NCBI RefSeq assembly: GCF_963921235.1
Contig: NC_086108.1
Coordinates: 84,322,001-84,386,000 of the forward strand
Length of the DNA: 64,000 nt
Origin: Mobula hypostoma
Lineage: Eukaryota
Direction of reading: 5' to 3'
The notes beneath the pieces were generated by a model, which made no database searches, was not told the DNA's origin, and was given only the letters and a program-made list of their open reading frames with translations. A program made the position numbers and the translations under genes. Shown piece by piece: positions 7,150 through 57,491 of the stretch (position 1 is its first letter; the number at the start of each line of letters is the position of its first letter).

Positions 7150-8770
7150 ATCTGAGAATCTTGAATGGTTCAGGTTTCTTACCATTTATTAACATTGAAT
7201 AAAAGAATATCACAGGAAGCTCATACATAATAGCATTATATTTATTTACTCAATTAGTAGCCAACTTTCCAATTCAAAAGAATTTAAGTGTTCCATCCTG
7301 TTGGAAAATGAGAGGCCATTCTCTTCACCTTGTGTCTCTCTGTGAGCTGATTCCAGAATGATGTGATGGTAAAAGTGTACACCAGAACCCATGTAACAGA
7401 TTTATAGTTAAAAATAAGGTAAATACCTTGAGTAGATAATGCAATTCCTGCAAATATCTGAAATGCTAAGAATCTTAAAACCACAGTTGCATTTGTGGGA
7501 ACATCATGTTTTCTAGTTTCAAGAGAGTTATGCAAAAAGATAGGTCTTGTCATCACAGTTACCGTAGGGAGCACATAGTTCAACAAACCTTTACACCTGA
7601 GTGAAAAAAATGTGACATTCCTGAACAATTTATTGTCCTCACCTCAGAGTTTCACTGTTTCGAAAATGTTTATCCATGGGATTTGGTCTATGAAGGCTGA
7701 GCCACCATTTAATTGCCCATCCCTAATAAGCATTGAGAAGGTGGTGCTGAGGTGGAGGTTTGGGTATACCCACAAAGCTGACATGAATGTTCCAGGATAT
7801 TGACTCGGTGATAGTAAAGGACGAGTGATAATAGTTCCAATTCAAGATGGCATGTGGCTTGGAGGGCAACTTCCAGGTGGAGTTAAAAAAAACGTCTGTG
7901 GGCAGGGGTGGGGGGGAGGAATTGTTGAAATTTCAGGTTAGACCCGACATATCTCTCTGCAATCTGCCATGAGTAATGCTAATCATTTTCTGGGGTGATA
8001 GAGTACACTGTCAGCACCCTATACCACATTCAGAAGTGCAATCTTTTCTGTCTGAAATATCATAAATCAGTTTAACTTCCAGACGAAACTTTGGACACTA
8101 ACTTAGAAACTTCATTTAGTTTCATGTGAAATAATTACATTTTAATTACAAAAGGAAAAAAAAAAGCAAACTATAGGACTCAAAAGTACTTGGTTAGTAC
8201 TTCATTCAGACTTGTCATGGCTGTATTCATTTAGTCATTTTTCAAATTCTAATCAGAAATAACTGCATGATCTCATTATTTAGCCGTTCTTGTGTTTTCA
8301 TTTCCACATGAGTCTAAAGCCAGATCCCATGCCTATCACCATTAGAGAGGGAAAAAAATTTACCACTCTGTTTCATATTACTCAAGGAGAATGAAGAATT
8401 GTCACTAGGATCCAGGCTGTGGTCTCTGGCCAGGAGATAGTAGGTAGAATGGTTACAGATAAAGCCTCAGGTTTAAAGCAGTCAAGAGACCAGAAGTGAG
8501 GGGCAACACAATGGACCAGGATTGGAAATGTTCTCTGGAAAACATTTTATGTAGTGTGGATTAAAGTTCACAAGACTAAGAAAAACCAAGCAGATCAATG
8601 GAACTCAATATTTTGATGAATATGTTACTGAGCAACTTAACAAGATCTACTGTTCCTCATTGCATGCAAAGGCCAAAAATTAACAAATAAAAATATAATT
8701 GAAGCAACTGACACACATCAAAGTTGCTGGTGAACGCAGCAGGCCAGGCAGCATCTGTAGGAAGAGGTGC

Positions 8771-8806
8771 AGTCGACGTTTCAGGCCGAGACCCTTCGTC
8801 AGGACT
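8771..8806 (-). ncRNA. Minimal type-I hammerhead ribozyme (best-preserved copy)
   Basis: 5'-AGUC CUGACGA AGG GUCUCGG CCU GAAAC GUC GACU-3': helix I AGUC/GACU, core CUGANGA and GAAA, helix II, GUC cleavage triplet, palindromic ACGU instead of helix III loop. Confidence 0.8.
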
Positions 8807-9099
8807 AACTGAAGGAAGAGTGAGTAAGGGATTTGAAGGCTGGAGGGGGAGGGGAAGATCCAAAATGATAGGAGAAGACAGGAGGAGGAGGGATAGAGCC
8901 AAGAGCTGGACAGGTGATAGGCAAAAGGGGATATGAGAGGATCATGGGACAGGAGGTCCGGGAAGAAAGACAAGGGGGGGGGACCCAGAAGATGGGCAAG
9001 AGGTATATTCAGAGGGACAGAGGGAGAAAAAGGAGAGTGAGAGAAAGAATGTGTGTATAAAAATAAGTAACAGATGGGGTACAAGGGGGAGGTGGGGCC

Positions 9100-10973
9100 T
9101 TAGCGGAAGTTAGAGAAGTCGATGTTCATGCCATCAGGTTGGAGGCTACCCAGACGGAATATAAGGTGTTGTTCCTCCAGCCTGAGTGTGGCTTCACCTT
9201 GACAGTAGAGGAGCCGTGGATAGACATGTCAGAATGGGAATGGGATGTGGAATTAAAATGTGTGGCCACTGGGAGATCCTGCTTTCTCTGGCAGACAGAG
9301 CGTAGATGTTCAGCAAAGCGGTCTCCCAGTCTGCGTCGGGTCTCACCAATATATAAAAAGGCCACATCGGGAGCACCGGACGCAGTATATCACCCCAGTC
9401 GACTCACAGGTGAAGTGTTGCCTCACCTGGAAGGACTGTTTGGGGCCCTGAATGGTGGTAAGGGAGGAAGTGTAAGGGCATGTGTAGCACTTGTTCCGCT
9501 TACACGGATAAGTGCCAGGAGGGAGATCAGTGGGGAGGGATGGGAGGGATGAATGGACAAGGAAGTTACGTAGGGAGCGATCCCTGCGGAATGCAGAGAG
9601 AGGGCGGGAGGGAAAGATGTGCTTAGTGGTGGGATCCCGTTGGAGGTGGCGGAAGTTACGGAGAATAATATGTTGGACCTGGAGGCTGGTGGGGTGGTAG
9701 GTGAGGACCAGGGGAACCCTATTCCTAGTGGGGTGGCAGGAGGTTGGAGTGAGAGCAGATGTACGTGAAATGGGGGAGATGCGTTTAAGAGCAGAGTTGA
9801 TAGTAGAGGAAGGGAAGCCCCTTTCTTTAAAAAAGGAAGACATCTCCCTCGTCCTAGAATGAAAAGCCTCATCCTGAGAGCAGATGCGGCGGAGACGGAG
9901 GAATTGCGAGAAGGGGATGGCGTTCTTGCAAGAGACAGGGTGAGAAGAGGAATAGTCCAGATAGCTGTGAGAGTCAGTAGGCTTATAGTAGACATCAGTG
10001 GATAAGCTGTCTCCAGAGACAGAGACAGAAAGATCTAGAAAGGGGAGGGAGGTGTCAGAAATGGACCAGGTAAACTTGAGGGCAGGGTGAAAGTTGGAGG
10101 CAAAGTTAATAAAGTCAACGAGTTCTGCATGCGTGCAGGAAGCAGCGCCAATGCAGTCGTCGATGTAGCGAAGGAAAAGTGGGGGACAGATACCAGAATA
10201 GGCACGGAACATAGATTGTTCCACAAAGCCAACAAAAAGGCAGGCATAGCTAGGACCCATACGGGTGCCCATAGCTACACCTTTAGTTTGGAGGAAGTGG
10301 GAGGAGCCAAAGGAGAAATTATTAAGAGTAAGGACTAATTCCGCTAGACGGAGCAGAGTGGTGGTAGAGGGGAACTGATTAGGTCTGGAATCTAAAAAGA
10401 AGCGTAGAGCTTTGAGACCTTCCTGATGGGGGATGGAAGTATATAAGGACTGGACATCCATTGTGAAAATAAAGCGGTGGGGGCCAGGGAACTTAAAATC
10501 ATCGAAAAATTTAAGAGCGTGAGAAGTGTCACGAACATAGGTCAGAAGGGATTGAACAAGGGGTGATAAAACCGTGTCGAGGTATGCAGAAACGAGTTCG
10601 GTGGGGCAGGAGCAAGCTGAGACAATAGGTCGGCCAGGACAGGCAGGTTTGTGGATCTTGGGTAGGAGGTAGAAACGGGAAGTGCGGGGTGTGGGAACTA
10701 TAAGGTTGGTAGCAGTGGATGGGAGATCCCCTGAGCAGATAAAGTCGGTGATGGTGTGGGAGACAATGGCCTGGTGCTCCTTAGTGGGGTCACGATCGAG
10801 GGGTAAATGAGAGGAGGTATCCGTGAGTTGTTGCTGTGCCTCGGCAAGCTAGAGGTCAGTACGCCAGACCACAACAACACCCCCCTTATCAGCGGGTTTA
10901 ATAATAAGGTTAGGATTAGTGCGGAGGGAGTGGAGAGCAGAGCGTTCAGAAGGAGTGAGGTTGGAATGGGGAC
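9100..10973 (-). pseudogene. PLE reverse transcriptase / GIY-YIG endonuclease ORF (frameshifted, 5'-truncated)
   Basis: 372-aa ORF 9343-10461 plus GIY-YIG frame 9126-9365; stop TAA at 9100-9102 after PDGMNIDFSNFR. Confidence 0.9.
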
Positions 10974-11676
10974 AATTGAAGCAACTGGTTTCTTACTAAC
11001 TGTTGTATAGCTAAAGAAGTAGTGGTATAGGTCGAGAAGCAAATTATCAAATCAGCATCAGCCGAGGGGCTGCAGATAATGCAAGTGGATTTAAATTGAA
11101 CGAAAATGAAATTTCTTTCTAAAACTAGGCAGGACATACATTGTGCCTGATCTGTATTAGACAAAGGTTTATATTATTGCACTCCAATACATTCTCAATG
11201 CAGTCTGATACACTTCAAGTCAGTTTACTGGCTTGATTTGTCATTTCGTTTGAAATTGTTTTTCAATTCATTAAGACTCTGCAATCTGCAAAGCATGTTA
11301 AATGTATTTAAGCACATCACTGTGAATGAACACCACAAAATAAAAGGGTTTGCTGAAATAAAGTCACACTTGATATCTGGGGAATATAAATACATCTCTG
11401 CTTCGATTCCTTTAAACTAAAACTACACTATTTATCCAAAGCAGGTAACATCAGGACTTGAAAGATCATTTTCACATTCCTTCATCTTCACAGAATCCAA
11501 ATCTGTAACTCGTTGATTAATAGCACTAAGGCAACTGCTTATCAAAGTGCTCTCAAGGCAATCTGGGACAAACAAGCAACTTCCATTTTCGGGAAAAAAA
11601 GCACAAATAAAAAATGCAAACTCTAAGTAATGTCTCATCACTAGACCACAGATCAACCAGTTTACATCGATAAAAT

Positions 11677-12817: not shown

Positions 12818-13896
12818 ATTCACTTTTCCATAAAAAACTTTTTAATCAGTTCACAATATTTAGAATATAAATAATTGCACACAAACAGAAATAGCTAATA
12901 AAGTTTTTAGGAGAAATCAAGCATTTTCCCTAATAAAGGAGCCAAGGTGCTAAAGATTCGTTTTTCAATTACAAGTAATTCAGTAATAAAACAAATCAGA
13001 AAAGTCCTTACAAATCTGAGAATTGCCAAGCATAATTTTTCCCTAAAATGTTTTTCTTCACAATTCTCTGGGAATTACTTTAAAGAACTAATGCCATAAA
13101 TATTCTGAAGGTTGTCGAGACTGCTCCATCATCCCAACCAGGACAATATATTTCTCCTCCCATTTTCCACCCATAATAAGAGCTGTTTTGACTCATTGCC
13201 CTTAGATTATGTAAGTTTGACAACCAGGAAGAAAATCATAAATTTCCTGCACTGTGCAAGGGTCCTGGAACCCCAATGCATGTTTCAACCCTGTTGCATT
13301 TACTTTATTTTAAAATGAAAATTATTGAAGAGCTTTAAAGTAGCCCAAGTATTGACTACTTCCTGGAAGCAAACTCTGTGAAAAAGCTATCGATGAACTA
13401 TGCTTTCAAGTTACGCCAGATAGAAAATTTCAAGAAGATGGGTAACATACAAAATGCTAGAGGAACTCAGCAGGCCATGCAGCACCTATGGAGAAGAGCA
13501 AAGAGTCAACATTTCGGCCCAAGACCCTTCATCAGGACTGGAGAAAAACAATGAGAATTCAGAGTAAGAAGGTGTCAGGAGGGGAGGAAAAGTACAAGGC
13601 AGTAGGTGATAGGTGAAACCTGGAGACAGGATGGGGTGAAGTAGAGAACTGAGATGTTGATTGGTGAAATGGATAAAAGGCTAGAGAACGGGGAATCTAA
13701 CTGGAGAGGGCAGAAGGCCATGGAAGAAAAGAAAGGGGAACCTGCACCAGAGTGAAGGGATGGGCAGGTAGGGAGATAAGATAAGACAGGGAAATGGGAA
13801 TGGACAATGGTGATGGGAAATTACCAGAAGTTCGAGAAACCCATGTTCATGCCATCAGGTTGGATACTACCCAGACAGAATATAAGGTGTTGCTCC

Positions 13897-14685
13897 TGTC
13901 ACGTGTCCAGCAACAATGGATATTAAATTGAGTCAGGTTATATAAACAAACAACAATATTTATTAACCTCTACTCAAAACATAGGAAAGTAAACAAACTA
14001 GCTTAACCGGAAGTTAACCATTACGCGGCTATCTCGAACAAACAGTCAAACTTAGGAATAGTTTTAACGAGTTCTCATTCACACACAGTCTTAAAGTAGT
14101 AAGTTGAAAAGTCCAACAGATTTCTTTACAGTCTTTACGGAGAGACTTCACTGCAGCAACAGTTCCTCCGAAGTAAATGACGAATCTGCCAATCGCAGTC
14201 GAGCGATGCCTTGTTGAAGCAATCACAAAGAAATAAAGGAACTGACCTTTCGGCTGGAGAGTGGACACTACACAAACCATCCTGACCTTGCAGGGGTTTT
14301 AACTCAAACGTGCCTGCCACAATTTCCCGAACGAAGATTAAAAAGGTCGATCATTCCCAAGAAGCTGAACGACATTAACTTTACCCGACCATTTGTTCCT
14401 GTACTTTGGTAAGGTCTTCACTCTCTAATACTAGACTGTAAAGGTAAAACAAAGGTGCAACAAACAAAAACTGGCAGTGACTGGCGAAACTGCCGGCAAC
14501 AATATTTGCACCTTAAAATAGAAAGTAAAACTGTGTCACACTTTAGCGGCCTCCTTAAATACCGTAAGGAACATGCCCTCACGTGACATAACATCACCCC
14601 ATGATCATGAGACAATTACATCATCCCACTCATAAGACCATTACATCATCCCACTGTACCGTGATCAAACTGTGAGCATGTAACA
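13897..14685 (-). mobile_element. Solo LTR (789 bp, Gypsy-type)
   Basis: TGTCACGTG...CATGTAACA termini; 4-bp TSD CTCC; minus-strand AATAAA near 13960; splits the PLE GIY-YIG region. Confidence 0.85.
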
Positions 14686-14949
14686 CTCCTCCAACCTGAG
14701 TGTGGCCTCATCGCAGTGGAGGAGGCCATGGATTGACATGTCAGAATGGGAATGGGAAGTAGAATTAAAATGGGTGGCCACTGGGAAATCCCGCTTTTTC
14801 CAGCGGACGGAGCATAAGTGCTCAGCGATGTGATCTTCCAACCTAGGTCAGGCCTAACCAATATACACAGGAGGCCACAACAGGAGCACCAGATACAGTA
14901 GATGCCCAAAAAGACTCACAGGTGAAGTGTTTGCTTCACCTGGAAGGAT

Positions 14950-15381
14950 TATATGAGGCCGTGGGGTTGTATACACTGGAATTTAGAAGGATGAGAGGGG
15001 ATCTGATTGAAACATTTAAGACTATTAAGGGATTGGACATGCTAGAGGCAGGAAACATGTTCCCGATGTTGGGGGAGTCCAGAACGAGAGGCCACAGTTT
15101 AAGAATAAGGGGTAGACAATTTAGAACGGAGTTGAGGAAAAACTTTTTCACCCAGAGGGTTGTGGTTCTGTGGAATGCTCTGCCTCAGAAGGCAGTGGAG
15201 GCCAATTCTCTGGATTCTTTCGAGAAAGAGTTAGATAGAGCTCTTAAAGATAGCAGAGTGAAGGGATATGGGGAGAAGGCAGGAAAAGGGTACTGATTGT
15301 GGATGATCTGCCATGATCACAGTGAATGGTGGTGCTGGCTTGAAGGGCTGAATGGCCTACTCCTGCACCTATTGTCTATTG
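14950..15381 (+). mobile_element. CR1 LINE 3' end nested in the PLE
   Basis: GLYTLEFRRMRGDLIETFK...ESRTRGHSLRI...FFTQRVV; CR1 tail GAATGGCCTACTCCTGCACCTATTGTCTATTG. Confidence 0.9.
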
Positions 15382-18300
15382 AATAGTAGTGAGGAAGGAG
15401 GTGTAGCACTTGTTCCGCTTGCAAGGATAATTACCAGGAGGGAGACCAGTGGCAAGGGTTGAATAGACACGTGAGTCGTGTAGGAAGTGATCCCTACAGA
15501 AAGCAGAAACAGGCGGGGGGGGGGGAAGGAAAGATATGCTTGGTGGTGGGATCCTATTGGAGATGGTGGAAGTTACAGAGAATTATGTACTGGATGCTGA
15601 GGCTAGTGGGTGGTAGGTGAGAACAAGAGAAACCCTATCCCTGGTGGGGTGGCAGGAAGATGGGGTGAGGGTTGATGTGCGTGAAATGAAAGAGATGTGG
15701 TTGAGGGCTGCGTTGAATGTGGAGAAATGGAAGCCCTTTTCTTTGAAGGAGGACATTTCCTTTGTTCTGGAATTAAAAGCCTCTTTCTGAGAGCAGATAT
15801 GGTGGAGATGGAGGAATTGAGAGAAAGGAATGCTGTTTATACAAATATCAGGGTGGGCCAAAGTAGCTGTGAGAATCAGTGGGTTTATAAAAGATATCAG
15901 TAGATGAGCTGTCAAAAAGGCAGGCATAGCTGAGACCCATGCTACACCTTCTGTTTGAAGTGAGAGGAGCTGAAGGAGAAATTATTATTTTAGAGTGAGG
16001 ACCATTTCCACCAGATGGAGGAGAGTAGTTGTGGAGGGGAACATGTTGTGTCTGATGACCAGAAAGAAGCCGAAAGTTTTGAGGCCTTCCTGATGGTGGA
16101 TGGAGATGTATAGGGACTGAACATCCATCATGAAAATGAGACAAATGGGGTTCCAGAACTTGAAATCACTGAACAGATCAAGAGCATGTGAAGTGTCACA
16201 GAGGTAGGTAGAAAGGGACTGAACCAGGGGGTATAAAACAGTCAAGAGATAGAGATACAAGTTCAGTGGGGCAGGAACAAGCAGAAACAATGGGTCTACC
16301 TGGGCAAGCAGGTTTGTGGATCTTAGATTGGAGGCAGAAATGGGAGGTGTGCGGTAAGGGAACAATGAGATTGGTGGCCATGGATGGGAAATCCCCAGGG
16401 TTAATAAGATCGGTGATGGTGTGGGTGACAATGGCCTGCTGCTCCTTAGTGGGGTCCTGTTCAACGGATAAGAAAGAGAAGGTGTCTGAGAGTTATCACC
16501 TGGCCTAGGAAAGGTAGAAGTCAGCCTGCCAGACTACTACAACACCTCCCCTTATCTGCAGGGTTGAAGCTGAGGTTAGGATTAGTGTGGAAAGAGTGGA
16601 GACCAGTGGGTTCAGAAGGAGTGAGGTTAGAATTCGAGAGAGGAGTGCTGAAGTCAGATCGGTTGATGTCTCGCAAGCAGTTAGCACTGAAAAGATCCAG
16701 GGCCAGCAGAAGACCAGATTGGGATTTCCAGGAAGAGGAGAAGGGTTGAAGACAGGAGAAGGAGTCATCAGCGAGGACTGGAGAGTCCTTGCCAATGAAG
16801 TAGACACAGAGACGGAAGCGGTGGAAGAAGAGCTTAGAGTCATGGCAGGTGCAGAACTCACTGAGGTGTGGGCACAAGAGGACAAAGGTGAGGCCCTTAC
16901 TGAGGACACAACATTCTGCCTCAGAGAGGGGAAGGTCAGAGAGGATGGTGAAGAACCAGTATGGATGAGAGCCAGGATCAGAGGAGGGAAGTATCTGAGG
17001 AGAGGGGAGGGTTGGGGTGTTCAGGGAAGGTGGGGTGGGAGGAAGATGAAATCTCTGAAGATCGAAGAACTGGCGGTGGGACCAGAGAGAATCAGGATTG
17101 TAGAGTGGTGGTGGGGGAAGGGGAGACTGGGGTTCCAGCGTCAGCACGTAAAGTCACGGCCTGGAGGTGCTGTTGATCAAGGTGCAAGCTGGGGTTGGAG
17201 GTTGTGCAATAGGGTCTTTGAAGGTGTCCAAGGTCATTGGAACCTGCATTGATGGCGGTGGAGTCTGGGATCCGAATCTGCTCAGGATTGTTAAAACCGT
17301 TGAGGTTGGCAACAGAGATTGCAGTCTGGGGTATTGTGGCTGCCAGCGTTGGAGATGGCAAATTCTGTGGTCTGTGAAGGGCCGATCTTCTGATCCTTGC
17401 TGGATGTGAGAACGGCAAAGAACCAGCGACTGAAAGCGTGGGTCTGACCGAGAATAAAGTATCGGGCAGGACCATTACAGGTGGTGGAGAAAGAGTCTCG
17501 GAGCTGTGGAAGCGACAGGGATAGGGACACTGCATACCCCCTCAAGGTGGAAAGCGCAGCATGTAGAATGCAGCGGCAGAAACAGTCAATTGGATGTGAA
17601 TACCTGGGGTCCTCAAAGGGTCCAAATCAAAAACCTTGAAAATGGATCTGGAAGCCATGTGGCACAAGATGGCCGTGAAGACATGTTTTCAGGAAGGGTA
17701 CGTGGATGTGGTAGCGGGTCTGAGTGAGCATGTGGTCGAAAAGTCAGAGGGCAGCAGAGATCACAAAGGGGGAGCAGAGAGAGAGGATTTCACTGAACTC
17801 CCGTCCAAGGGAAGATTTGAACTTCTTCAGGGTAGGCATCCCTGGAAGAAACTTTGCTGCGTAGTAGTCGACTCACAAACAAGAGAAAATCTGCAGATGC
17901 CGGAACTCCAAGCAACACACACAAAATGCTGGAGGAACTCAGCAGGCCAGGCAGCATCTATAGAAAAGAATAGTCAGTCGACATTTTGGCCCAAGACCCT
18001 TCATCAGGACTGGAGAAGAAAAGATGAGAAGTCAAAATAAGAAGCTGGTGGGAGGAGAGGAAGAAGTACAAGGTAGTAGGTGATAGGTGAAACTGGCAGG
18101 GAGGAGGTGAAGTAAAGAGCTAGGAGGTCAATTGGTGAAAGAAGTAAAGGACTAGAGAAGGGGGAATCTGATAGAAGACAGAAGACCATGGAAGAAAGAG
18201 AAGGAGGAACACCATAGGGAGGTGATGGACAAGTAGGGAGAGAACGGGAAGCGGGAATGTGGAATGTTGAAGGTGGGAGAAAGGTGCAATTACTGGAAGT

Positions 18301-19944
18301 TCAATAAGTTAATTTTCTGCCATCAGGTAGGAGGCTACCCAGACAAAATATAATGTTTTGCTCCTCCAACCTGAGTGTGGCCTCATTGCAGCAGTAGAGG
18401 AGGCCATGGACTGACAGGTTGGAATGGGAATGGGAAGTACAATTAAAATAGTTGGCCACTGGGAGATCCTGCTTTTTCTGGCGGATGAAGTGTAGGTGCT
18501 CAGCGAACCAGTCTCCCAATCTACGTCAGGTGTCACCAACATACAGGAGGCCACACCAGGAGCACTGGTTAGAGTAGATGACCCCAACGGACTCACATGG
18601 TCATGTGCCGCCTCACCTGTTTGGGGCCCTGAGTAGTAAAGAGGTGGAGCTGTAGGAGCAGGTGTGCCACTGTTCTGCTTGCAAGGGTAAGCACCAGGAG
18701 TGAGATCAATGGGGAGGGTTGAATTGTCAAGGATCACCTCTCCTTCCTTCCCCACTTTCTGCTTTCCACAGGGATCATTCTCTATGGACTCCACTGTCCA
18801 TTCATCCCTCCCCACTGAGCACCTAGAGTCTACTGAGTCGGCCAGAAAAAGCAGGATCTTCCAGTGGCTACCCATTTTGAATTCTACTTCCCATTCTCAT
18901 TCCAACATGTTGGTCTCCTCTCATTCTCATTCCAACATGTGGCCTCCTCTACTGATGCAATGAGGCCACACTCTGGTTGGAGGAGCAAAACATTATATTC
19001 TGTCTGGGTGGCCTCCTACCTGATCTCTGTTTGGTTGGTAAGGTCAGGTACGACCGCCCAGTTTCAGACGCATTGTGACTATGAGCGCTCATCGCCAGCA
19101 GTGCTATGGTTCTTCCTGTGCTCCAGCGCCTCATCTGTTTTTTTGGAAGTCAGGTCTTGTACCTCAAGTTAGGGTGCCGCTTACCGCCCCACCCCTCCCC
19201 CAAGAATCATGAACACCTCCCAGCGACTTCTTTTTCCCCTTACAACATGAACCCCCCTCCCATTGGGAATCACTGTTCTAGCTCAAAGCACCGTGTAATT
19301 ATCTAATCTGTATCAACAGTATGCAAAACAAGCTTTTCATTGTAACTTGATACATGTGACAATAATAAATCAATTCTAGTCTCTGCTGGCCGCAACTTGT
19401 CTTCTGTGCTAATTCCCCATAACCCTCAATTTCGTTCAAATATCTGTGTACCTCCACTTTTGAATTCTGCAGTCCTCAGAGACAGAAAATTCTAGCAATT
19501 CACTGGCCTCTGAGAGAAGAAAAATATTTTGCACTTGGGCCAGCAGCCTTCAATTTGGAAAATAATAATTTGAAGTATAGTATACTTTCAAGTTTCTCAC
19601 TTTCATCCCTATGGCATTTGCAGATGAAATTGGCACATTTGGTAAACAGAAACTAAATGCGCCTGGTAAGACTGCATCATAAGAACAAGACAAGGAGCAT
19701 CCTCTAAGAAAAGGGAAATACTTCCTAAATGGATAAGCCTTTGGACTTCTCCTCCACGGCCAACCCAAGTTATTTTTTGACCAATTGGAACCACCATCTA
19801 CCCTGTCACCCAAAGGGTTCTCCTCTTCCCTGGTCATAATGCAGTTTTTAATCTCCAGTTCCTCTGTTTCTGATATTTCTTATATATCCTTCTGTACTTC
19901 ACTTTATTGAATCTTGATACCAACCTGTTCCAAGGAGATTCAAG

Positions 19945-22600: not shown

Positions 22601-23261
22601 AATTACATCAGATAACGTTTCCAAGAAGCCCATTATTAAAATTAGAGAAAACTGAGCTTAGAAAACTCTCCTTTTGTGCACTAGGTCAGTTTCAGCTTCA
22701 TTTGTCCCTTTGAAAATTAGATATTGTGTCCACAGGTAACTATGGCAAGTTTTTTTGCTGTCAGTTGTGAATTAAACATGGGAATATAATAAACACTTCA
22801 TGATTTGTTTGTGTGCGTGTGTGTGTGTGTGTTTGTGTGTGGTTTGTTACTCTTGTTGGCGTTGCATGATTTTTTTTCTCGTGTTGGGGGCAGGTTTGAC
22901 GATCCTGTTGCTGCTCTTTTCCACAGTTTGTTTTCATTGGGTGGGGGGAGGAGAAGATGAGTTTCTTTTAACAAGACCATGGTGTTCTTTGTTTCATGGT
23001 TATCTGGAGAAGACGAATCCCAGAGTTGTATACTTCGTACATACTTAAATAATAAAATGAACCTTTGAACCAGGTAGAGATCTATTTACTGTACTGAATA
23101 TAATCAATTCCATGGAATGCTTTCTGTGATTTGAAGATGTTAGGGATCACTATGTAGCTATAACATTATGAATAGCATAATTATGGATTTACTGAAATAA
23201 GAATCAGTCTTCAAGAAATAAAACCTGGCAACACAGCAGTTAGTGTAATGCTATTACAGGG

Positions 23262-24030
23262 CCAGCTTCCTCAGCACTACCGGCCCCTCCACCTATCTTC
23301 GTATCATCAGCAAACTTAGCCACAAAGCCATCTATTCCATAATCCAAATCGTTGATGTACAATTTAAAAAGAAGCGGCCCCAACACTGATCCCTGTGGAA
23401 CACCACTGGTAACCGGCAGCCAACCAGAATAGGATCCCTTTATTCCCACTCTCTGTTTCCTGCCAATCAGCCAATGCCCTATCCACGTATGTAACTTTCC
23501 CGTAATTCCATGGGCTCTTATCTTGTTAAGTAGCCTCATGTGTGGCACCTTGTCAAAGGCCTTCTGAAAATCCAAATATACAACATCCACTGCATCTCCC
23601 TTGTCTAGCCTACTTGTAATTTCCTCAAAAAATTGTAATAGGTCTGTCATGCAGGATTTTCCTTTAAGGAATCCATGCTGAATTCTGCCTCCAGGTAATC
23701 TGTAACCTCATCCTTGACAATCGACTCCAACAACTTCCCAACCACCAATGTCAAGCTAACAGGTCTATAATTTCCTTTTTGCTTCCTTGCCCCCTTCTTA
23801 AACAGCGGAGTGACATTTGCAATCTTCCAGTCTTCCGGAACCATGCCAGAATCTATCGACTTTTGAAAGATCATCGCTAATGCCTCCGCAATCTCCACAG
23901 CTACTTCCTTCAGAACACAAGGGTGCATTCCATCTGGTCCGGGAGATTTATCTACCTTTAGCCTATTCAGCTTCCTGAGTACTTTCTCTGTCGTAATTGT
24001 GACTGCGCACACTTCTCTTCCCTGCCACCC
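23262..24030 (-). mobile_element. CR1 LINE RT fragment
   Basis: [55 protein letters not shown]. Confidence 0.95.
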
Positions 24031-25489
24031 TTTAAGCGCTATAAAATAACAAGAAGCCTAGATATGATGAGCAAGGCTGAAACAAAAATGCATTCCACCA
24101 CAGCAGTGACTAAAGAGCATTGGTTTTATTGGTAGTTGATGGAAAATAAGAAATATACTTCCTCTCAAAGAGTGGTGAGGGTTTAGTACTCGGTGCCTAA
24201 AAGGAGCACTGAAATCTTCAGCAAGTTCTAAAAATTCTGAAAGCATTTTATCTGCTGTGGTCTGCAACACCCCAGACCAAGAGTTGAGCTTTGTCTGACT
24301 CTGGACAACAAGGATTCCAGGACACAAAGGGCCTCCGCCCATGCTGTAAATGTCTTTAGATTTCATTGCTCTTGAGCACAAATATAAACCATAAAATGTT
24401 CCAGGCATTCAAGGAAACAAAACTTAGAAATACTTTGACACCACTAAAAATATTGGATATTATATTATAATGGATAACGACTAAAGAGAATGACTTGCTT
24501 CTGCTGCTCTTCAATAGATTCTAATCCCATGTGGGATCTAAAGACTATGAATAGGGCCTGACCCAGTGTAGCTTTCACCATGAGCTGAGTTATTCAGGAT
24601 TAATAAGAAGTAATCCAGTCTGGAATTTGAAGGAATGCTGAATAAGTAATCAAGATATTAAAGATATATCTCCAATCCCCATTTATATTTAGCCATAAGT
24701 CCAAAGGAGCATTTAATAAAAAATGGTGTTTTCTTTGTGCCCTGACAAATGAAAAGGTGGCAATCCAATTCTTTATGTCATTGAAAACATTATGCATTAT
24801 ATTTGTATGTAAGTAAACATCATATCTGTATTCAAGATACCATTTTGACCTTCAATCCAATCAAGCATTACATTAAACCTGTCTCTGATTGCCATCTTCT
24901 AGCTAATAACAGACCAAAAGTTAAAAGCACTGTAGATTTCTACCTCCGTTTTAGGCACAATACCAGACTCCTACCACTCTTTTGAGTGAAGATAATTTTC
25001 CTTAACTGGGTTTTAAATCTTCAAGCTACATGAGAGCAGATTGACCGGCCTTTTAGCTTATTTTCCCCACATGAATGGTAAAAGGCATTTCAAAATATGA
25101 TTAAACTGGAAGTGGTTTGGGATGGATAAACAATATAGAATACATTTTTAATGTATATCTTCCTGCACTTTGGTGCAGAGTTATTTTTTCACTCTCACTG
25201 CACTCTTTCAACTCTCCCATCCCGACCCTAGCCTATTTTTGAAACAATTTTAATTGGACCATTATTTGAGTCAGTATTTGCAATTGAACCAATGTACCTG
25301 CTTTCAAATTTAACAGCATATCGAATAAGAGCCAAAGGAAGCCCTTTTTCATTACATTTCCATCACTTTGTAGCTCATTCTCCAAGTATATGCTGCTATG
25401 TGGTCAGTGTTTAAGTCTGGACCTAGTTTACAATATATTCAGATTTGGATGACACTTAAAAAGTGATATAATAATAAATGGTAATCATA

Positions 25490-30659: not shown

Positions 30660-31051
30660 CCTTTTTTTAATTATTTATTTTTATTTATTACAAACAAAAA
30701 AACACAAAAAAATACAGCACATCCACAAAAACCACAACCATAGCAAAATCAAATTAAATATTGAGCAGCAAAAGGGAGAAAAATATAAAGGCAAAAGTAA
30801 ACTTACACAGCAGAGGTGCATTGCACCAAAAAAACCTCAGTCCTCACCTCATGTGAAAGTCCAATACAGGGCCCCATATCCTTTCAAAGATGTCCCCTCT
30901 GTCCTCATTACATAGTCTCAGTCTCTCCAAATGTAAAGTATTTGCCAGTTCTCTCAGCCACAGATCGTACGTAGGCACAGAGTCCATTTTCCACATTTGC
31001 AGGATTAACTTCTTAGCAATCACCATTCCAAACAATACAGCCATATTTTCA

Positions 31052-31217
31052 GTCGAAGTTTCAGGCTGAGACCCTTCGTCAGTCCTGACGAAGGGTCTCG
31101 GCCTGAAACGTTGACTGTCCCTCTTCCTAGAGATGCTGCCTGGCCTATCGTGATCACCAGCAACTTTGATGTGTGTTGCTTGAATTTCCAGCATCTGCAG
31201 AATTCCTCGTGTTTGCA
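31052..31217 (+). mobile_element. PLE terminus fold-back with head-to-head hammerhead cores
   Basis: CCCTTCGTCAG TC CTGACGAAGGG centre; TSD AG(C/T)CATATTTTCA; plus-strand motif 31081-31116. Confidence 0.9.
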
Positions 31218-31789
31218 AGTCATATTTTCATACATATTGGCTGAAGATAGGGAGCTTGATGCTCCAAGGATGGCTATGAGCGGGTCCGGTTCCCACCGCT
31301 TCCCAAAAGCCTCAGAGGAACAGTGAAAAATACTTTTCCAGTATGGATAAAGCTTAGAACATGACCAAAATGAATGTGACAAGTTACTGTTCACAGATTT
31401 ACATCTATTACAAACTGGTGAAATATCAGGGTAGAAACTGTGCAACTTCTCTTTGGAATAATGGAGTCTATGTATTGTTTTAAACTGTATAAGTCTGTGT
31501 CTGACATTGACCGAACAATCATGTATACTCTTTAAACACTCATCCCAGACCTCCTCCATCTGTTCTATACCCAATTCATCCACCCATGCCTGTTTAAAAC
31601 CTGCAGTATTCCCCTGAGCTCCATTGTGTAACAGGATCAAAAAGGGGGAAGTTTAAAGGAGATTTACCAATCATTTGTTTTACGCAGAGAACACTAGGTG
31701 CCTGGAATACACTGCCAAAGGAAGTGGGGAGAGCAGATATGAAAGCAATGTTATCTATAGAAGTTTTGAGCGAGAAGTTGTTGTTATGA

Positions 31790-33400
31790 CACCACTAACC
31801 AAATTTCAATCTCCTTCCTGTATGCTGATTCATCACCACCTTGGATTCGGCCCACAACAATAGTGCAATTAGCAAACTTGAATATGGGATTGGAGCTGTG
31901 CTTAGCTACACAGTCATAGGTGTAAAGCGAATAGAGCAGGGGGCTAAGCACACAGCTTTGTGGTGTACCTATGCTGATGGAGATTGTGGAGGAGATGTTG
32001 TTGCCAATCTGAACTGACTGGGGTCTACAAATGATGAAATTCAGAATCCAATTGCACATCACACACATCAAAGTTGCTAGGCAGCATCTCTAGGAAGAGG
32101 TATAGTCGACGAGACCCTTCGTCAGGACTAACTGAAAGAAGAGCTAGTAAGAGATTTGAAAGTGGGAGGGGGAGGGGAGATCCAAAATGATAGGAGGATG
32201 GGGAGGGATGGAGCCAAGAGCTGGACAGTTGATTGGCAAAAGGGATATGAGAGGATCATGGGACAGGAGGCCTAGGGAGAAAGAAAAGGGGGAGGGGGGA
32301 AAATCCCAGAGGATGGGCAAGGGGTATAGTGAGACGGACAGAGGGAGAAAAAGGAGAAAGAGAAAAAGAATGTGTGTAAATAAATAAATAATGGATGGGG
32401 TACGAGGGGGAGGTGGGGCATTAGCGGAAGTTAGAGAAGTCGATGTTCATGCCATCAGGTTGGAGGCTACCCAGACGGAATATAAGGTGTTGTTCCTCCA
32501 ACCTGAGCGTGGCTTCATCTTTACAGTAGAGGAGGCCATGGATAGACATACCAGAATGGGAATGGGACGTGGAATTAAAATGTGTGGCCACTGGCAGATC
32601 CTGCTTTCTCTGGCGAACAGAGCATAGGTGTTCAGCAAAACGATCTCCCAGTCTGCGTCGGGTCTCGCCAATATATAGAAGGCCACATTGGGAGCACCGG
32701 ACGCAGTATATCACCCCAGCCGACTCACAAGTGAAGTGTCGTCTCACCTGGAAGGACTGTCTGGGGCCCTGAATGGTGGTAAGGGAGGAAGTGTAAGGGC
32801 ATGTGTAGCATTTGTTCCGCTTACACGGATAAGTGCCAGGAGGGAGATCAGTGGGGAGGGATGGGGGGAACGAATGGACAAGGGAGTCACGTAGGGAGTG
32901 ATTCCTGCAGAAAGCAGAGGTGGGGGGAGGGAAAGATGTGCTTAGTGGTGGGATCCTGTTGGAGGTGGCGGAAGTTACAGAGAATAATATGTTGGACCCG
33001 GAGACGGATGGAGTGGTAGGTGAGGACAAGGGCAACCCTATTCCTGGTGGGGTGGCGGGAGGATGGAGTGCACATGGAGGTTTTGAGGCCAAGGTCTTGG
33101 AGCTTATTGATTAATTTTGAGGGGATGATGGTATTGAATGCTGAGCTGTAGTTGATAAACATCAGGATCAGTATCCTGATGCATGCATCTTTACTGCCCA
33201 GATGTTCCAGGATTGAGTGAAGAGCCAATGAGGTGGCATCTGTTGTGAACCTATTGCTCTATTAGACAAATTGGAGAGGATCCAAGTCACCTCTCAGGAA
33301 GGAGCTGATATGTTTCATTACTGGCCTCTCAAAACATTTCATTGCTGTTGATGTAAGTGGGCAATGGTCATTAAGGCAGGTCACCACACTCTCCTGGGCA
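31790..33400 (-). mobile_element. Rex1/Babar-like RT fragment split by a PLE
   Basis: MKCFERPVMKHI...[43 protein letters not shown]. Confidence 0.85.
32060..33068 (-). mobile_element. 5'-truncated PLE with uninterrupted GIY-YIG endonuclease frame
   Basis: AGVIYCVRCSQCGLLYIGETRRRLGDRFAEH...PDGMNIDFSNFR*; TGCACAT flanks; hammerhead has an internal deletion. Confidence 0.9.
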
Positions 33401-34068
33401 CGAGAAAAATTGAATACTGATCTAAGAGTCATAAAGTAGGGAAAAGAGACATCGTGGTTTAGGGAAGGAATTCTAGATCCTAAGATGTCGACAGCTGAAT
33501 GCATGATTGCCAGTGGTAGAATCATTTAAAACTGAGAATGTACTGAGACCTTGTTTGAAAGAGCACAGATAAGATTGCAGATTTGTCTGAAACTTCGAAG
33601 TTAGGTGTACATGTCCTAACATAATCTCGAATTTGTAAATATCTAAAAACTAGATGCAGGGATATTGTAATCTGCTTGTAACTGCGCAAATAAGGCAAAG
33701 TTTCCATTAATATACAGGTCACCTACACTACAGATGCCTCTCTGTTTCCGGGTAGAAAAAACAGTATCATTCAGGCCAGGCAAAAAGGAATGATTGTCAC
33801 AAATCAGAATGTCAATATCAGTTTTTGGGGCCTTAATGTGTAGTTGAATCTGCTTCCAAATTCTTACAGTGCTGCCAACCACGAAGCTGTTACTAAAATG
33901 TGACTTATTAACTGCAGTGTGGCTATTAAGGAGAGCTGGTAAGGAAGTCTTCTTACAAAGCATTCGCTCTATGAGTAACCATGCTGGGAACGAGTCTGAG
34001 GTAGACAGTGGGCCTTTTTTCCACCATGCAAGAATGGATAGGTGGGCAGTTCAGTAATACATTTTAAC

Positions 34069-34259
34069 ACAAACAGGAGGAACTCTGCAGATGCTGGAAA
34101 TTCAAGCAACACACATCAAAGTTGCTGGTGAATGCAGCAGGCCAGGCAGCATCTATAGGAAGAGGTACAGTCGACGTTTCGGGCCCATCGACTGTACCCC
34201 TTTCTAGAGATGCTGCTTGGCCTGCTGCGTTCACCAGCAACTTTGATGTGTGTTGCTTG
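34069..34259. mobile_element. PLE terminus fold-back palindrome
   Basis: Inverted arms meeting at about 34185 within the hammerhead; 13-bp TSD AATACATTTTAAC. Confidence 0.9.
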
Positions 34260-35705
34260 AATACATTTTAACGTTCGGTAGGGCAAAACCACCTGCTTCC
34301 TTGGGCTTTGACAAGTGTTTTTAGTAATTCTAATAGCTTTATAATCCCAAATGAAGGGTATAATAATTGAATCCAATTGCTTAAAATATGACAGAGGAAT
34401 AAAACATGGAATAAGAACTAACTGCTATTTGGGTGAGGCAAAAGGTGAAGGTAGGCACAGCTCCTGGGACACACGTCTACTCCATACCAAGACCCCACGT
34501 GACCCCATGCTGCCACTTGCCACTTTCAACCAACTATGGATCTGTATTCCCAGATCCCTTTGTTCTACAGAACTCCTCAGTGCCCTACAATTCACTGTAT
34601 TATTTTTTTAAAAACTGAAAATGCTTTGCCAGTTAAGGCTTAATATTGAAACACATTCAAAGACTAATATTGAAAGACTTTATGTTAACAGCCATTTATT
34701 CTTCCAGTGTATTCAACAGTCACCTTTGTTCTCTGACACTGCCATTCATCAGTCAAGTTCACTCTTCAAAGAAAAGTCCAAGATGAACTTCATTTAGCAA
34801 CTTTCCAAAATAACTACAATGCCGTGTACCGCCAAGTACTTAAAGTCGTCACTGAAACCTGGGAGATTTTCCCACCTTTGTTTCTTCCAAACATAACTTT
34901 CAATTCACTATAAAACAAGTTAACCATGACTTAATTAGCCTAAATGTGCTTATTGTGAAAGTGTACACTTTCAACAAATGCAAGCAATCTGCAGGCTGTT
35001 TTTTTACAATGTTCAGCATTGGAGGAACGCTGCTAGTTAACTTAAGAACTGGATATTCCCAAACCAGGAAGTGGCAAGTGTGACTCATTAATTTATTATC
35101 CTGACAGCTGGCTGATCTTCAGCTACATCCAGACCATTTCAGCATTGGCTGAAATAAAAGACCAAGAAAGGAGATAACTCAAGGAAAAGGGCCATCATTG
35201 TTTTTACTCAAAAGGAATGCAGCTTAATTTTTTTCAGCAGAATCTGATTATAATGCAAACAGTAGATGGTGCTCGATGTAGATCATAAAGATTTCCAAAC
35301 ATTGATATAGATCTTCATACCTAGTTTATTTAGAGACACAGTATGATAACAATCTGTTTAGGCCCAATGAGCCCACACCGCCCAACTTCACCAATGTGAG
35401 TAATTAAACCACTACTAAACCACTAATCAGAATCAGGTTTAATATCACTAGTGTACGTCATGCAATTTGTTATCTTTGCAGCAGCAGTACAATGCAATAC
35501 ATGACAAATATAGGAAAAAAACTGAATTACAAGAAGTATATGTATATCTATGACATAATTTAGTGCAAAAACAGAAATAACAAAAAAAGAAGTGAGGTAG
35601 TGTTCATGTGCTCAATGTCCATTTAGGAATCTGATGACAAAGGGAAAGAAAGTGCATGTAACGTTTCAACTGCAACTCCAGCACAACCTAAACCTTTATT
35701 CAAAG

Positions 35706-35910
35706 ACGAGGAATTCTGTAGATGCTAGAAATTCAAGGAACACACATCAAAGTTGCTGGTGCACGCAGCAGACCAGGCAGCATCTTTAGGAAGAGGTACA
35801 GTCTACGTTTCGGGCCGAGACCCTTTGGTCTTGGCCTGAAGCGTCAACTGTACCTCTTCCTAGAGATGCTGCCTGGCCTGCTGCGTTCACCAGCAACTTT
35901 GATGTGTGTT
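35706..35910. mobile_element. PLE terminus fold-back palindrome
   Basis: Arms meet at about 35824 in hammerhead helix II; 13-bp TSD CCTTTAT(T/C)CAAAG. Confidence 0.9.
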
Positions 35911-37415: not shown

Positions 37416-37548
37416 AGGGACTTCCGCCTGCGGCTCGATGGAGTAATACATAAATTTTGTTGCTGCCTTTAAGTCCTCCTTTTCCGCAGTTTAAACCTTG
37501 AATTTTTAACTTCTATCTCTTGGATCTTTGAGGGAAATAGTTGTCATT

Positions 37549-38283
37549 ATGTCATATCCTTTAAGAAGTGGAAAGCAGCTTTTTGAATCCAGCAATGGGA
37601 AGGGAAAAACTTTGAAAGAAAAATTGGAAGATATGCCTGTCTGGGCTGAACGTTTGGAACGTGCGTTGATGGCTCTCAGCAACAAAATAGACAATAACAC
37701 TTCTGAGTTGAAGTCGTTCCGACAGAGTTTTCAGAGTATTATTTCCTTGAATACTGAGTTTAAAGAATCAAAACGTCAGATTGTGGATATTTCAACCCGC
37801 TTGGGACAGGCTCAACGTAAAATGGTCAATTTAGAGGCAAAGTCTCGTCAGAATAATATTCGAATTATCGGACTGAAGGAAGGCTCTGAGAGTGGGAATT
37901 TATTGGACTATTTTGCCAATTTGTTTCAATCTTTGTTTCCGGATATTCTACCTCAGCCTCCCGATATTGAAAGAGCTCATAGAATTTCCATATTGAATTT
38001 TCAGATCTCAGGTAAAACTCGGCCAATCTTGGTCAATTTTCTTTGCTTTAAGGTTAAAGACCAAATCATAAAATATGCAAGGAAACAGAGAGTTTTAAAA
38101 TTGAATGGTTCCAAGATCCATTTTTACAAAGACTATCCACAGGAAATTATGGAACAGCGGATCAAATTTGTCCCAGCGATGAAAAGTGCTCATGCAAAGG
38201 GACTTTTTCCATCGCTTTGCTACCGTGCTAGATTTAAATTATTTACTAAAGAATCTACACCTCATGTGTTTTCGGATCCCTAA
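37549..38283 (+). pseudogene. L1 ORF1 RNA-binding protein
   Basis: Coiled coil then LEAKSRQNNIRIIGLKEG...DIERAHR...RPILVNFL. Confidence 0.85.
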
Positions 38284-38568
38284 GCGGCACTGGACTTTGT
38301 TAACTCTATCGTGGAGTCAGCTGACGCATGAAGGATATTTGGGTTGCTGAATAATTTTCTGTAAGAAAACAGGCTTTGAAGATTTTTAATATGCTGAAGA
38401 TTTTCTTTGATCAATGAACTATTTAAAGAAGAAGTGAACTTCTTGGTTTGACTAATGAATAACTTTTTTGAAGTCTGTTTGGTATATGGAGTGAACTAAC
38501 ACAGTGGACAGATTATTAACTGGTTTGATTATATGCTTCTTTTTTCCTTTTCTTTTATTAATTAAGTG

Positions 38569-38884
38569 TGGGCACGTGGCCAAGTGGTTAAGGCATTGGA
38601 CTAGCGACCTGAAGGTCGTGAGTAGAGCCCCAGCCGAGTCAACGTGTTGTGTCCTTGAGCAAGGCATTTAATCACACATTGCTCTGCGACGACACTGGTG
38701 CCAAGCTGTATGGGTCCTAATGCCCTTCCCTTGGACAACATTGGTTTGTGGAGAGGGGAGACTTGCAGCATGGGCAACTGCTGGTCTTCCATAACAACCT
38801 TGCCCAGGCCTGCGCCCTGGAGAGTGAAGACTTTCCAGGCACAGATCCATGTTCTTGCAAGACTAACTGATGCCTTTACTTTAC
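38569..38884 (+). mobile_element. tRNA/CORE-like SINE with RTE-like tail, inserted in the L1 inter-ORF region
   Basis: Same family as 26192-26505; 15-bp TSD TTTATTAATTAAGTG; (TTTAC)n end. Confidence 0.9.
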
Positions 38885-39489
38885 TTTATTAATTAAGTGA
38901 AAGCTTTCATAGTTTATATAGGCTCTTTCTTGTATAGTGAGGAGTGTTTAGAATAGATAATTAGCTTTAGCTTATTTTATTAAAAAAGTTGGGTAGTAAG
39001 CTAAAGGAATAATGGTGCCTTTTTCTTGTTAGAGATTGTATTGTTTAGGTTTAATAGCATTGTTTTGACGCTTTTGGAGACTGTTTTTGCATTCCCTAGT
39101 TTATTTTCAATGATTAACTATAAACATCTTTCTTCTGCTTCTCTGCTGGGTTTTCTTGTCTTAGGGTCATGTGATTTCTTTGTAAGGGAGGGGAATTGGG
39201 AGAAAAAATTTAAATCACTATATTGAGCCGCAGGCAGAGTTCTGCTTTTTCTTTTCTCCTTGGGGTGGCATTCTGGCTTTTTCCTTCCTTTTGCCGGATT
39301 TCTACCTTTTGGGATGGTGGGAGGTTTTGGGGTATTTTTGCATTTTGGGGTTTATTACAGGATTTTTTTCAGGTTTTTCCCCATTATGGAGCTCCAGAGC
39401 ATGCGTGTTTTCTATATGGTTATACTCATCAACGCCATCTTTGATTAGCCCACAATGGTATGCGTGTATTTTTGTGTTTAAAACAATAT

Positions 39490-42400: not shown

Positions 42401-43270
42401 TTTCATTTAGTGATCCAACCTTCTCTCTTTGGCGGAATAAAGGAATTTATTCCTTTATGGATCTGTTTCAAGAAGGCCGATTGTGTCCTTTGAGAAAATA
42501 GTGACTAAATACTCTCTTTCACACCACACTTCTGGCAATATCTTCAGGTCAGACATTTTTTACAAGAATATTTAAGTAATTTTCCATATATTCAAGATTC
42601 TGACCTGTTAGACATTATTTTAAAAATGAACCCTTTAGTGAAAGGTTTTATTGGGAAAATTTATAATTTACTGTTACAACAGGATAATTATTCTTTATTT
42701 AAGATTAAGCAAGATTGGGAAAGAGAGTTTAACATGATCTTGATAACAGAGGATTGGTTGCGAATTTTGAAGTTGGTTAACTCTTCTTCAATTTGTGCCA
42801 GTCATTCTTTAATTCAGTTTTAAATTGTACATCATTATTATTTGACAAAGGAGAGACTGTCTAAAATATTTCCTATTGTTAATAGTCAGTGTGATAGATG
42901 TAAAGCTGAGATAGCTACATTGACACATATGTTTTGGTCGTGTTCTGTATTGAAACAGTTTTGGAAATCTATGTTTTCTACAATTTCTAAAGCTTTAAAA
43001 ATTAATTTACAACCTAATAAATTGACAGTTTTGTTTGGTATAAATCCTAAATATATTCATGCTATTTCTATATCAGATCAACATGTAATTGCAATTGTTA
43101 CATTATTGGCTAGAAGGGCTATCTTATTAAAATGGAAAGATGCTTCTGCTCCCACTTTGATACAATGGTTCTCTCAGGTGATGCTATGTCTTAGTTTGGA
43201 AAAAATTAGAAGCCTAACTTTTGATCCTTGATTTGACTTTGAGAAAAGGTGGGGCTCTTTTGCCTGTTAC
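39490..43270 (+). pseudogene. L1 ORF2 (APE endonuclease + RT), many stops and frameshifts
   Basis: NIISWNV, GGDFNC, SDHAP, SYRPISLLNIDAK, DAEKPFDRVEW, CDRCK...HMFWSC. Confidence 0.9.
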
Positions 43271-48237: not shown

Positions 48238-48461
48238 AACATACATCAAAGTTGCTGGTGAACGCTGCAGGCCAGGCAGCATCTATAGGAAGAGGCGCAG
48301 TCGACGTTTCAGGCCGAGACCCTTCGTCAGGACCTGACGAAGGGTCTCGGCCTGAAACGTCGACTGCGCCTCTTCCTATAGATGCTGCCTAGCCTGCTGC
48401 GTTCACCAGCAACTTTGATGTATGTTGCTTGAATTTCCAGCATCTGCAGAATTCCTGTTGT
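48238..48461. mobile_element. Near-perfect PLE fold-back palindrome with a hammerhead core on each strand
   Basis: 94-bp arms (48238-48331 and 48333-48426), 1-nt spacer, 2 mismatches; 14-bp TSD TCCCAATTCCACTA; absent from the other LTR. Confidence 0.95.
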
Positions 48462-51825: not shown

Positions 51826-52053
51826 CAATCACAAACAAGAGAAAATATGCAAATACTGGAAATCTAAGCAACACACTCAAAATGCTGGAGGAACTCAGCA
51901 GGCCAGGCATCATCTATGGAAAAGAGTGCAGTCAATGTTTCAGGTCAAGACTGTCCTGCTGAAGGGTTTCAGCCCAAAACGTTGACTGTACTCTTCCCTC
52001 CATAGATGCTGCCTAGCCTGCTGAGTTCCTCCAGCATTTTGTGTGTGTTGCTC
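51826..52053. mobile_element. PLE terminus fold-back palindrome (second subfamily)
   Basis: TGCTGGAGGAACTCAGCAGG / CCTGCTGAGTTCCTCCAGCA arms; TSD TGTGCAATTC. Confidence 0.85.
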
Positions 52054-57400: not shown

Positions 57401-57491
57401 AATCAAACTTCTCACTTCCCAAAAGAGGGTCAAGGGAACCCGTACTAGAACATGTCTTCACATTTAGTGATCTGTTTCTTCCATTGCTGTT

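Follow-up and report, generated by a model that had tools for sequence, protein, structure and literature searches.

The stretch of 64,000 nucleotides analysed here (the window, from the ray Mobula hypostoma) carries on its minus strand a minimal type-I hammerhead motif, situated in the 3' pLTR of a young Penelope-like element (PLE). Our main reading, to which we assign a probability of roughly 0.8, is that this pLTR hammerhead would cut after its GUC triplet only when paired with a second motif through ACGU, that such cleavage is likely to be weak and helped by protein, and that the copy in the window is itself likely inert. By every sequence feature tested, the motif is a member of the minimal PLE hammerhead class, a class already known and described in 2014 (PMC4209133).

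Read from 8806 to 8771, the 36-nt motif has exactly the letters that an earlier note had given it and lies, as claimed there, on the sense strand of the element, with the stop of the endonuclease region (9102-9100) 293 nt upstream on the same strand, close to the estimate of about 300. The Penelope context, the minimal type-I architecture and a helix III without a loop, reduced to the self-complementary ACGU, were likewise borne out. In the standard numbering scheme for hammerhead positions, the core residues C3U4G5A6N7G8A9 and G12A13A14, the A15.1-U16.1 pair and H17 are all present in the window motif (Table 1), and little or no change is seen in the core when two ray motifs are aligned with ten motifs from relatives. 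A scan of the window against Rfam yielded no hammerhead match at E <= 5 and two unrelated weak matches only, and the folding energy of the monomer is ordinary (z = -0.37). The upstream pyrimidine tract is also predicted to form a hairpin with the core, which may be compositional.

Table 1. Positions of features in the window, with the evidence or remark belonging to each.
Feature	Position	Strand	Evidence or remark
Minimal type-I hammerhead motif	8771..8806	minus	sequence; identical 36-mer in L144, L150, L154; covariation
Helix I of hammerhead	8806-8803 with 8774-8771	minus	
Core C3-A9	8802-8796	minus	
A9.1, unpaired	8795	minus	
Helix II	8794-8792 with 8785-8783	minus	G10.1-U11.1 wobble in young subfamily
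G12-A15.1	8782-8779	minus	
Palindrome ACGU (helix III, loopless)	8779-8776	minus	
C17	8775	minus	predicted cut between 8775 and 8774
Penelope-like element, 5'-truncated, young subfamily	8711..10973	minus	96.5% identity to full-length copy L144
RT part of ORF remnant	9343..10848	minus	501 codons, without start; RVT_1, homologues
GIY-YIG endonuclease region	9100..9420	minus	frameshifts, three frames; stop at 9102-9100
3' pLTR	8711..9099	minus	pyrimidine-rich UTR, hammerhead, short-form 3' end about 65 nt past cut
Target-site duplication, 3' copy	8697..8710	minus	14 bp, AT-rich end
Target-site duplication, 5' copy	10974..10987	minus	14 bp
Back-to-back inverted terminus pair	31050..31186	both	plus arm at 31081 intact, H17 = U
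Second truncated copy with endonuclease region	32076..33070	minus	GAAA lost by internal deletion in motif
Back-to-back inverted terminus pair	48239..48435	both	joint at motif 5' edge; minus arm intact
Inverted pair, older type	51871..52052	both	plus arm with A6C core variant

The element that hosts the motif falls in the young clade of our tree, with a terminal branch of 0.025. Its RT remnant has an in-frame stop just upstream and the CX4CxxC linker motif near its end, and was recognised by Pfam RVT_1 (E 1.1e-5, under the curated cut-off) and by homologues down to E 1e-214. There is no upstream pLTR, the frame is broken, and the nearest motif on the same strand (7086) has a decayed core. The copy is one ORF-bearing insertion with a target-site duplication, and not a head-to-tail tandem of non-coding units. 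We regard it as likely to be an inert leftover insertion, and cleavage of any consequence would not be expected from such a lone, promoterless copy.

Evidence that the motif is a genuine hammerhead came from distant relatives of the element. Among 80 metagenome loci, 40 had a match reaching the protein end and 35 of these had at least 150 nt downstream. In 11 of these 35 invertebrate-type relatives, a full motif was found 96-324 nt after the endonuclease match on the sense strand, and none was found antisense; the other 24 gave no full descriptor match, several of them showing a decayed core. All 11 carry the extra 9.1 base and a palindromic 15.2-16.2 (CG in 10, CGCG in one), the palindrome being a requirement of the descriptor itself. 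In the alignment of the two ray and ten relative motifs, which includes near-duplicates among the relatives, all four pairs of helix I change on both sides while the core stays fixed at about 50% protein identity, with a covariation score of 0.816 against 0.257 for shuffled alignments (0 of 500). That the helix I sequences differ while the core they surround is fixed is direct evidence, despite the way the set was selected. For helix II, a register with G10.1-Y11.1 and an unpaired A9.1 has 91.7% of cells paired across the 12 sequences (G-C at 10.1-11.1 in nine and G-U in two), percentages that lean high because the sequences were picked with a descriptor based on pairing and include near-duplicates. 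The earlier note was right about helix I, the CUGANGA and GAAA core and the GUC triplet, and wrong about an A-U register for helix II, which was rejected with 61.1% of cells paired and A-U in two of the 12 sequences.

The note had also proposed comparing core with flanks across genomic copies. An identity filter applied to the 229 aligned termini left 135 that span the motif (49 young and 86 older). In the 86 older copies, divergence from the column majority is 0.093 in the non-CpG core, 0.092 in the helices, 0.092 in the tail, 0.102 in loop II and 0.294 in the spacer. Core and tail thus diverge equally, and because the copies decay neutrally this comparison neither supports nor refutes function; it is the comparison across lineages that separates a fixed core from changing helices. 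Since helix I is exchanged in the invertebrate relatives and their core is retained, the motif is best described as a genuine minimal type-I hammerhead. That it is instead a chance look-alike in a conserved repeat terminus, as the lack of an Rfam match, the ordinary folding energy and a core no more conserved than the tail among genomic copies might suggest, is highly improbable, given the match to a published and assayed class, the same core in the same place in distant relatives (11 sense, 0 antisense) and the compensatory helix changes, whose covariation refutes it.

Full-length copies were identified by a search of the genome, in which 68 of 105,130 candidates were scored and many of these had an open frame of 1,043 codons. 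In three of the 12 loci fetched (L144, L150 and L154), a motif identical to the window 36-mer is present in both pLTRs, the two being spaced 3,512-3,519 nt apart around the 1,043-codon frame. The 1,043-codon open frames of L144, L145, L150, L152 and L154 are 98-99% identical to each other, which marks a very young family whose activity may be continuing. The L144 frame is a single ORF with RT and, at its C terminus, a GIY-YIG domain (Pfam RVT_1 and GIY-YIG, under the curated cut-offs), DKG, YIDD and YIG motifs, and a CX4CxxC linker at residue 910; for GIY-YIG, L144 (E 0.002) and the copy at 32424-33110 in the window (E 2.6e-4) both score just under the curated cut-off. The best named relatives are proteins of Mobula hypostoma (88-94%), Hypanus sabinus (77-89%) and Chiloscyllium (65-71%), in agreement with the elasmobranch host that had been proposed from the letters alone, and the next are unnamed and marine invertebrate proteins at about 46-57%. 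A CX2-5CxxC linker between RT and EN marks Neptune or Nematis, as described in PMC8557442. The element would be classed as a Neptune-type EN+ PLE, the linker being common to both groups and not deciding between Neptune and Nematis. It has the hallmarks of PLEs, namely partial tandems of pLTRs, 5' truncation, inverted arms, a tail and two classes of 3' end.

In the long frame, the first ATG lies at +61 past the predicted cut, and a 16-codon upstream frame starts at +21. Two candidate splice-acceptor-like sites (a pyrimidine tract followed by YAG) flank the motif at 8806-8830 and 8755-8770 on the minus strand of the window; the first coincides with the 5' strand of helix I, an arrangement described for Drosophila Penelope, and the second lies 20 nt past the cut, just before the 16-codon frame. 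In contigs from four presumed RNA runs, which span this stretch but carry no information on strand, ends or level, GT..AG ends were found at none of the 15 joints listed, of 31. The tail after the cut is conserved between subfamilies far more than the spacer before it, and contains a UGCUG/CAGCA stem with a subfamily-specific loop (8711-8760, minus, in the window and 695-780 in L144), which is a candidate RT recognition site.

A monomer cannot close helix III because it has no loop III, whereas two motifs can do so via ACGU, and that the motif is an obligate dimer, as the earlier note put it, we infer from this architecture and from assays in other species. The computed energy of the active dimer is -9.5 kcal/mol with U11.1 and -14.7 with C11.1, and the corresponding values for a pair of inactive monomers are -20.0 and -23.8. 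Within the natural flanks, helices I and II have computed pair probabilities of about 0; as nearest-neighbour energies omit the tertiary contacts of the core, the predicted instability is possibly overstated. In the published assays, the Schistosoma monomer did not cleave and dimers were cleaved weakly (PMC4209133), and the Anolis PLE hammerhead cleaves only with the element protein, while ribozyme mutants integrate in vitro (PMC11167929). Weak, assisted and dimer-dependent cleavage would be expected here on the basis of these assays and the computed energies. In the mechanism that we propose, the two pLTR motifs of a master transcript, or those of two RNAs, would exchange strands to form helix III, and a cut lying 60 nt before the first ATG of the long frame would process tandem or read-through RNA into unit-length molecules. 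Integration would mostly use RNA that is intact at the scissile bond, whether uncleaved or re-ligated, so that cutting would be accessory and not the setter of copy ends; its accessory role may be RNA processing or self-limitation.

Cleavage has a more central place in the model of PMC4209133, in which dimers cut tandem RNA, monomers re-ligate to circles and rolling reverse transcription gives pLTR-ORF-pLTR. Partial tandems exist in the ray genome (a repeat of 586 nt in L144 and one of at least 778 nt, at 99.7%, in L150), and re-ligated circles would be just as likely to give read-through of the junction. However, tandem read-through transcripts give the same structures, a lineage with the core change A6C was amplified, and the Anolis element integrated in vitro without cleavage (PMC11167929). 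We therefore consider it improbable that the ray element depends on cutting in this way.

The accessory place given to cutting in our main reading draws on where copies begin and on whether they pass the cut. Young copies were collected as 95,818 matches to the 27 nt after the cut, of which 445 begin exactly at the cut in a two-mismatch test, against 189 at a control site two bases on; starts at the cut amount to about 1.2% once the pass rate of the pattern, about 0.37, is allowed for. When 30 of the starts at the cut were inspected, 21 were called inverted joints to the other arm of the element itself, 17 of them with 2-5 nt of microhomology, and none joined plain flanking DNA; one such junction with plain flank (L132) was seen in a random sample. 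Run-off at the cut was rejected as the main source of short copies on these figures, namely 445 of 95,818 with mostly inverted joints. The excess of 445 over 189 could be a weak trace of cleavage, although the twofold difference from the control is hard to read because it is confounded by microhomology. In a 1.38-Mb sample, 66 of the 69 young copies reaching the cut pass beyond it. The scissile bond was thus unbroken in their templates, which were either uncleaved or re-ligated.

The 5' break falls inside the 36-nt motif in 33 of 76 young termini, 16 of the 33 being called inverted. The break rate in the motif is 1.59 per 100 copy-nt (1.10-2.24), or 1.40 (25 of 63) when one arm is counted per insertion. 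In the tail it falls to 0.31, and on the upstream side to 0.56 over the adjoining 40 nt and 0.10-0.14 farther away. Two classes of 3' end, at about +65-75 and +95-110, lie some 35-40 nt apart, and copies with short ends and long tails do not differ in break position (median -22 and -24.5, p = 0.75) while they do differ in length (88 and 125 nt, p = 1.6e-5); the cluster of breaks thus follows the motif and not the length of the cDNA. It would be explained by RT that stalls where the motif is folded or bound, and equally by RNAs whose starts from an internal promoter are dispersed; an internal promoter in the pLTR region is described for Penelope (PMC2377424).

Among genomic copies, an intact core and palindrome were counted in 27 of the 49 young ones and in 13 of the 86 older ones. 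At 11.1/G12, older copies read TG in 17, CA in 15 and CG in six of 44, as in symmetric CpG decay, whereas the intermediate subfamily has CG in six of six and the youngest has TG in 20 of 24 and no CA. The ancestral pair was therefore G-C, and the living lineage has fixed G-U. At position 6 (the core numbering is consistent with PMC7151607), 16 of the 86 older copies have C, and one pattern applied genome-wide counted 87,363 copies with A, 5,048 with C and 1,505 with G or T. Among 30 inspected C6 loci, 27 have older-type flanks and 10 have the endonuclease end upstream. In a tree of 54 rows with position 6 masked (one row dropped by length), 11 of 13 C6 rows group together in a star-like fashion, separate from the majority of older A6 rows; the C6 rows are not one clade (five changes), and the young lineage's long branch joins the tree in their midst, a placement with weak support. 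Three natural ribozyme states (C11.1, U11.1 and A6C) are therefore present in one genome. In two other hammerheads, A6C is deleterious in Mg2+ and tolerated in Mn2+ (PMC7151607). By analogy with those hammerheads, this suggests that an older endonuclease-bearing lineage spread with little cleavage, although C6 copies could have been mobilised in trans by A6 masters.

These observations bear on a second alternative, in which the ray motif is retained chiefly for a signalling role as folded RNA or RNP, either as a block or switch point for RT or as a region where RNA starts, and cleavage is vestigial or dispensable. The concentration of breaks inside the motif at a position independent of tail class, the internal promoter of Penelope, the excess of C6 over G and T, and the clustering, flanks and Mg2+ defect of C6 copies all fit such a signal. 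Weighing against it, the core is invariant while the helices vary across relatives at about 50% protein identity, which points to long-run selection for catalysis; the currently active lineage has A6; the scattered C6 rows could reflect the mobilisation in trans just mentioned; and A6C hammerheads still cleave in Mn2+ (PMC7151607). In addition, the breakpoints are ends of local alignments with a blur of a few nt, n is 76, and very short copies are under-detected. We regard this alternative as less likely than not. Strong selection on catalysis in this genome is nevertheless opposed by the A6C lineage and by the weakening of helix II to G-U in the youngest subfamily, and the copies as a whole suggest that the element can likely spread without cutting. 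A fuller proposal is put forward only tentatively: hammerhead cutting may be dispensable for spread, with an A6C EN+ lineage reaching tens of thousands of copies, a living lineage weakening helix II, and the folded motif acting as the main RT stop or strand-switch that makes back-to-back copies.

The family is abundant throughout the genome. Exact matches to a 34-nt pattern number 45,139 in the 3.48-Gb genome, with none for its reversed control. In a sample of 1.12 Mb, made up of 112 10-kb stretches picked by position from seven large contigs, the descriptor search that had been proposed for minimal hammerheads gave 24 strict matches, against 0 on reversed sequence, corresponding to about 75,000 intact motifs by extrapolation. 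Chance was ruled out as the source of this abundance by both controls. The same sample contains 227 termini (2.03 per 10 kb, s.e.m. 0.15), which extrapolates to about 0.70 million genome-wide and a mean of 13 per 64 kb, and family matches make up about 5.8% of the sampled DNA. Terminus pairs in the sample were back-to-back in 29 cases and face-to-face in none. In the window, blastn with four natural termini as queries found 25 termini, with six back-to-back inverted pairs among them, and the window is therefore about twice as dense as the genome mean; the very high density claimed earlier was confirmed, and the count of about 19 was too low. For comparison, about 4,000 minimal motifs are reported for coelacanth and about 9,000 for Xenopus (PMC4209133), and a section title of PMC7229834 gives up to 120,000 canonical hammerheads in axolotl.

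Most termini in the window are decayed or inverted stubs. A homologous motif or its decayed form is present at all ten sites listed earlier (eight minus, two plus), whereas core, palindrome and both helices are intact in only three of them (8771, 31081 and 48299), the decay being mostly CpG-type changes at G12, 15.2 and 16.2. Further inverted pairs lie at 34099-34269, 35740-35909 and 50208-50387, and back-to-back pairs of 140-200 bp resemble MITE-like inverted repeats. Older, fragmented Penelope copies, 72-87% identical to the young one and with inverted segments and nested insertions, occupy 13445-18896 (minus). The window also contains a PNMA-type gag-like domain (Pfam E 1.7e-19) with an adjacent frame at 45574-47389 (minus), likely an LTR retrotransposon relic; a broken LINE-like element at 37510-43231 (plus) and 30844-33650 (minus), with an ORF1-like coiled-coil frame and RT (RVT_1 E 1.3e-18); CR1/L2-type RT fragments at 23240-24057, 49191-50343 and 58762-59127; and a GC-rich segment unlike its surroundings at 56721-57467, which may be a CpG island or an exon.

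Among Penelope-like elements, the motif as such is nothing unusual. With the metazoan minimal hammerheads described in PMC4209133 it shares the type-I topology, a 4-bp helix I, the extra base between 9 and 10.1, G10.1-C11.1 (in the older ray subfamilies), a palindromic 15.2-16.2 without loop III, the location in both pLTRs and the many solo decayed copies. It differs from them in a helix II of 3-4 bp, compared with 7-8 in Schistosoma families, in the fixed U11.1 of the youngest subfamily and the A6C lineage, and in copy number, at 45,139 exact or about 75,000 descriptor-intact motifs. The Anolis carolinensis Poseidon element (PMC11167929) likewise has two 3' end classes about 35-40 nt apart, an AT-rich target site and copies made from RNA intact at the cut; it belongs to a different clade, the ray element has a linker Zn-finger, and the cut is 26 nt inside the ORF in Poseidon and is predicted upstream of the first long-frame ATG in the ray. 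Neptune and Nematis EN+ PLEs (PMC8557442) have the same single ORF running from RT through a CX2-5CxxC linker to GIY-YIG, and the same 5' truncation, partial tandems, inverted 5'-truncated arms and tail.

Non-LTR retrozymes, with hammerheads reported from genomes that include one chondrichthyan and a proposed pLTR origin (PMC7229834; bioRxiv 10.64898/2026.07.22.740005), also place type-I hammerheads in repeated DNA. As described there, they are head-to-tail tandem non-coding units, often with canonical hammerheads, whereas the ray element is dispersed and ORF-bearing, and its short copies are mostly solo or back-to-back inverted. The A6C hammerhead of phage Bcep176 (PMC7151607) has the same core change, CUGCNGA, as the ray sister lineage, but is a single assayed natural ribozyme, while the ray A6C comprises thousands of retroelement copies known by sequence.

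Our literature searches found no report of an elasmobranch PLE ribozyme, and A6C and Penelope never occurred together among the matches listed; a shark or A6C example is possible in Lunse et al., who, going by the title, reportedly treat hammerhead dimer cleavage. No elasmobranch occurs in the examined parts of PMC4209133, and no shark terms occur in its supplements other than file 1.

Finally, the role of the ribozyme in PLEs is called unclear in PMC8557442, and the ray genome makes that question testable through its near-identical intact masters and its three ribozyme states. A repeat family that makes up about 5.8% of the sampled DNA is invisible to Rfam, and its extrapolated 0.7 million or so termini record, through their ends, the behaviour of RT at the motif. 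Most of the interest of the finding is carried by the breakpoint cluster and the A6C lineage.
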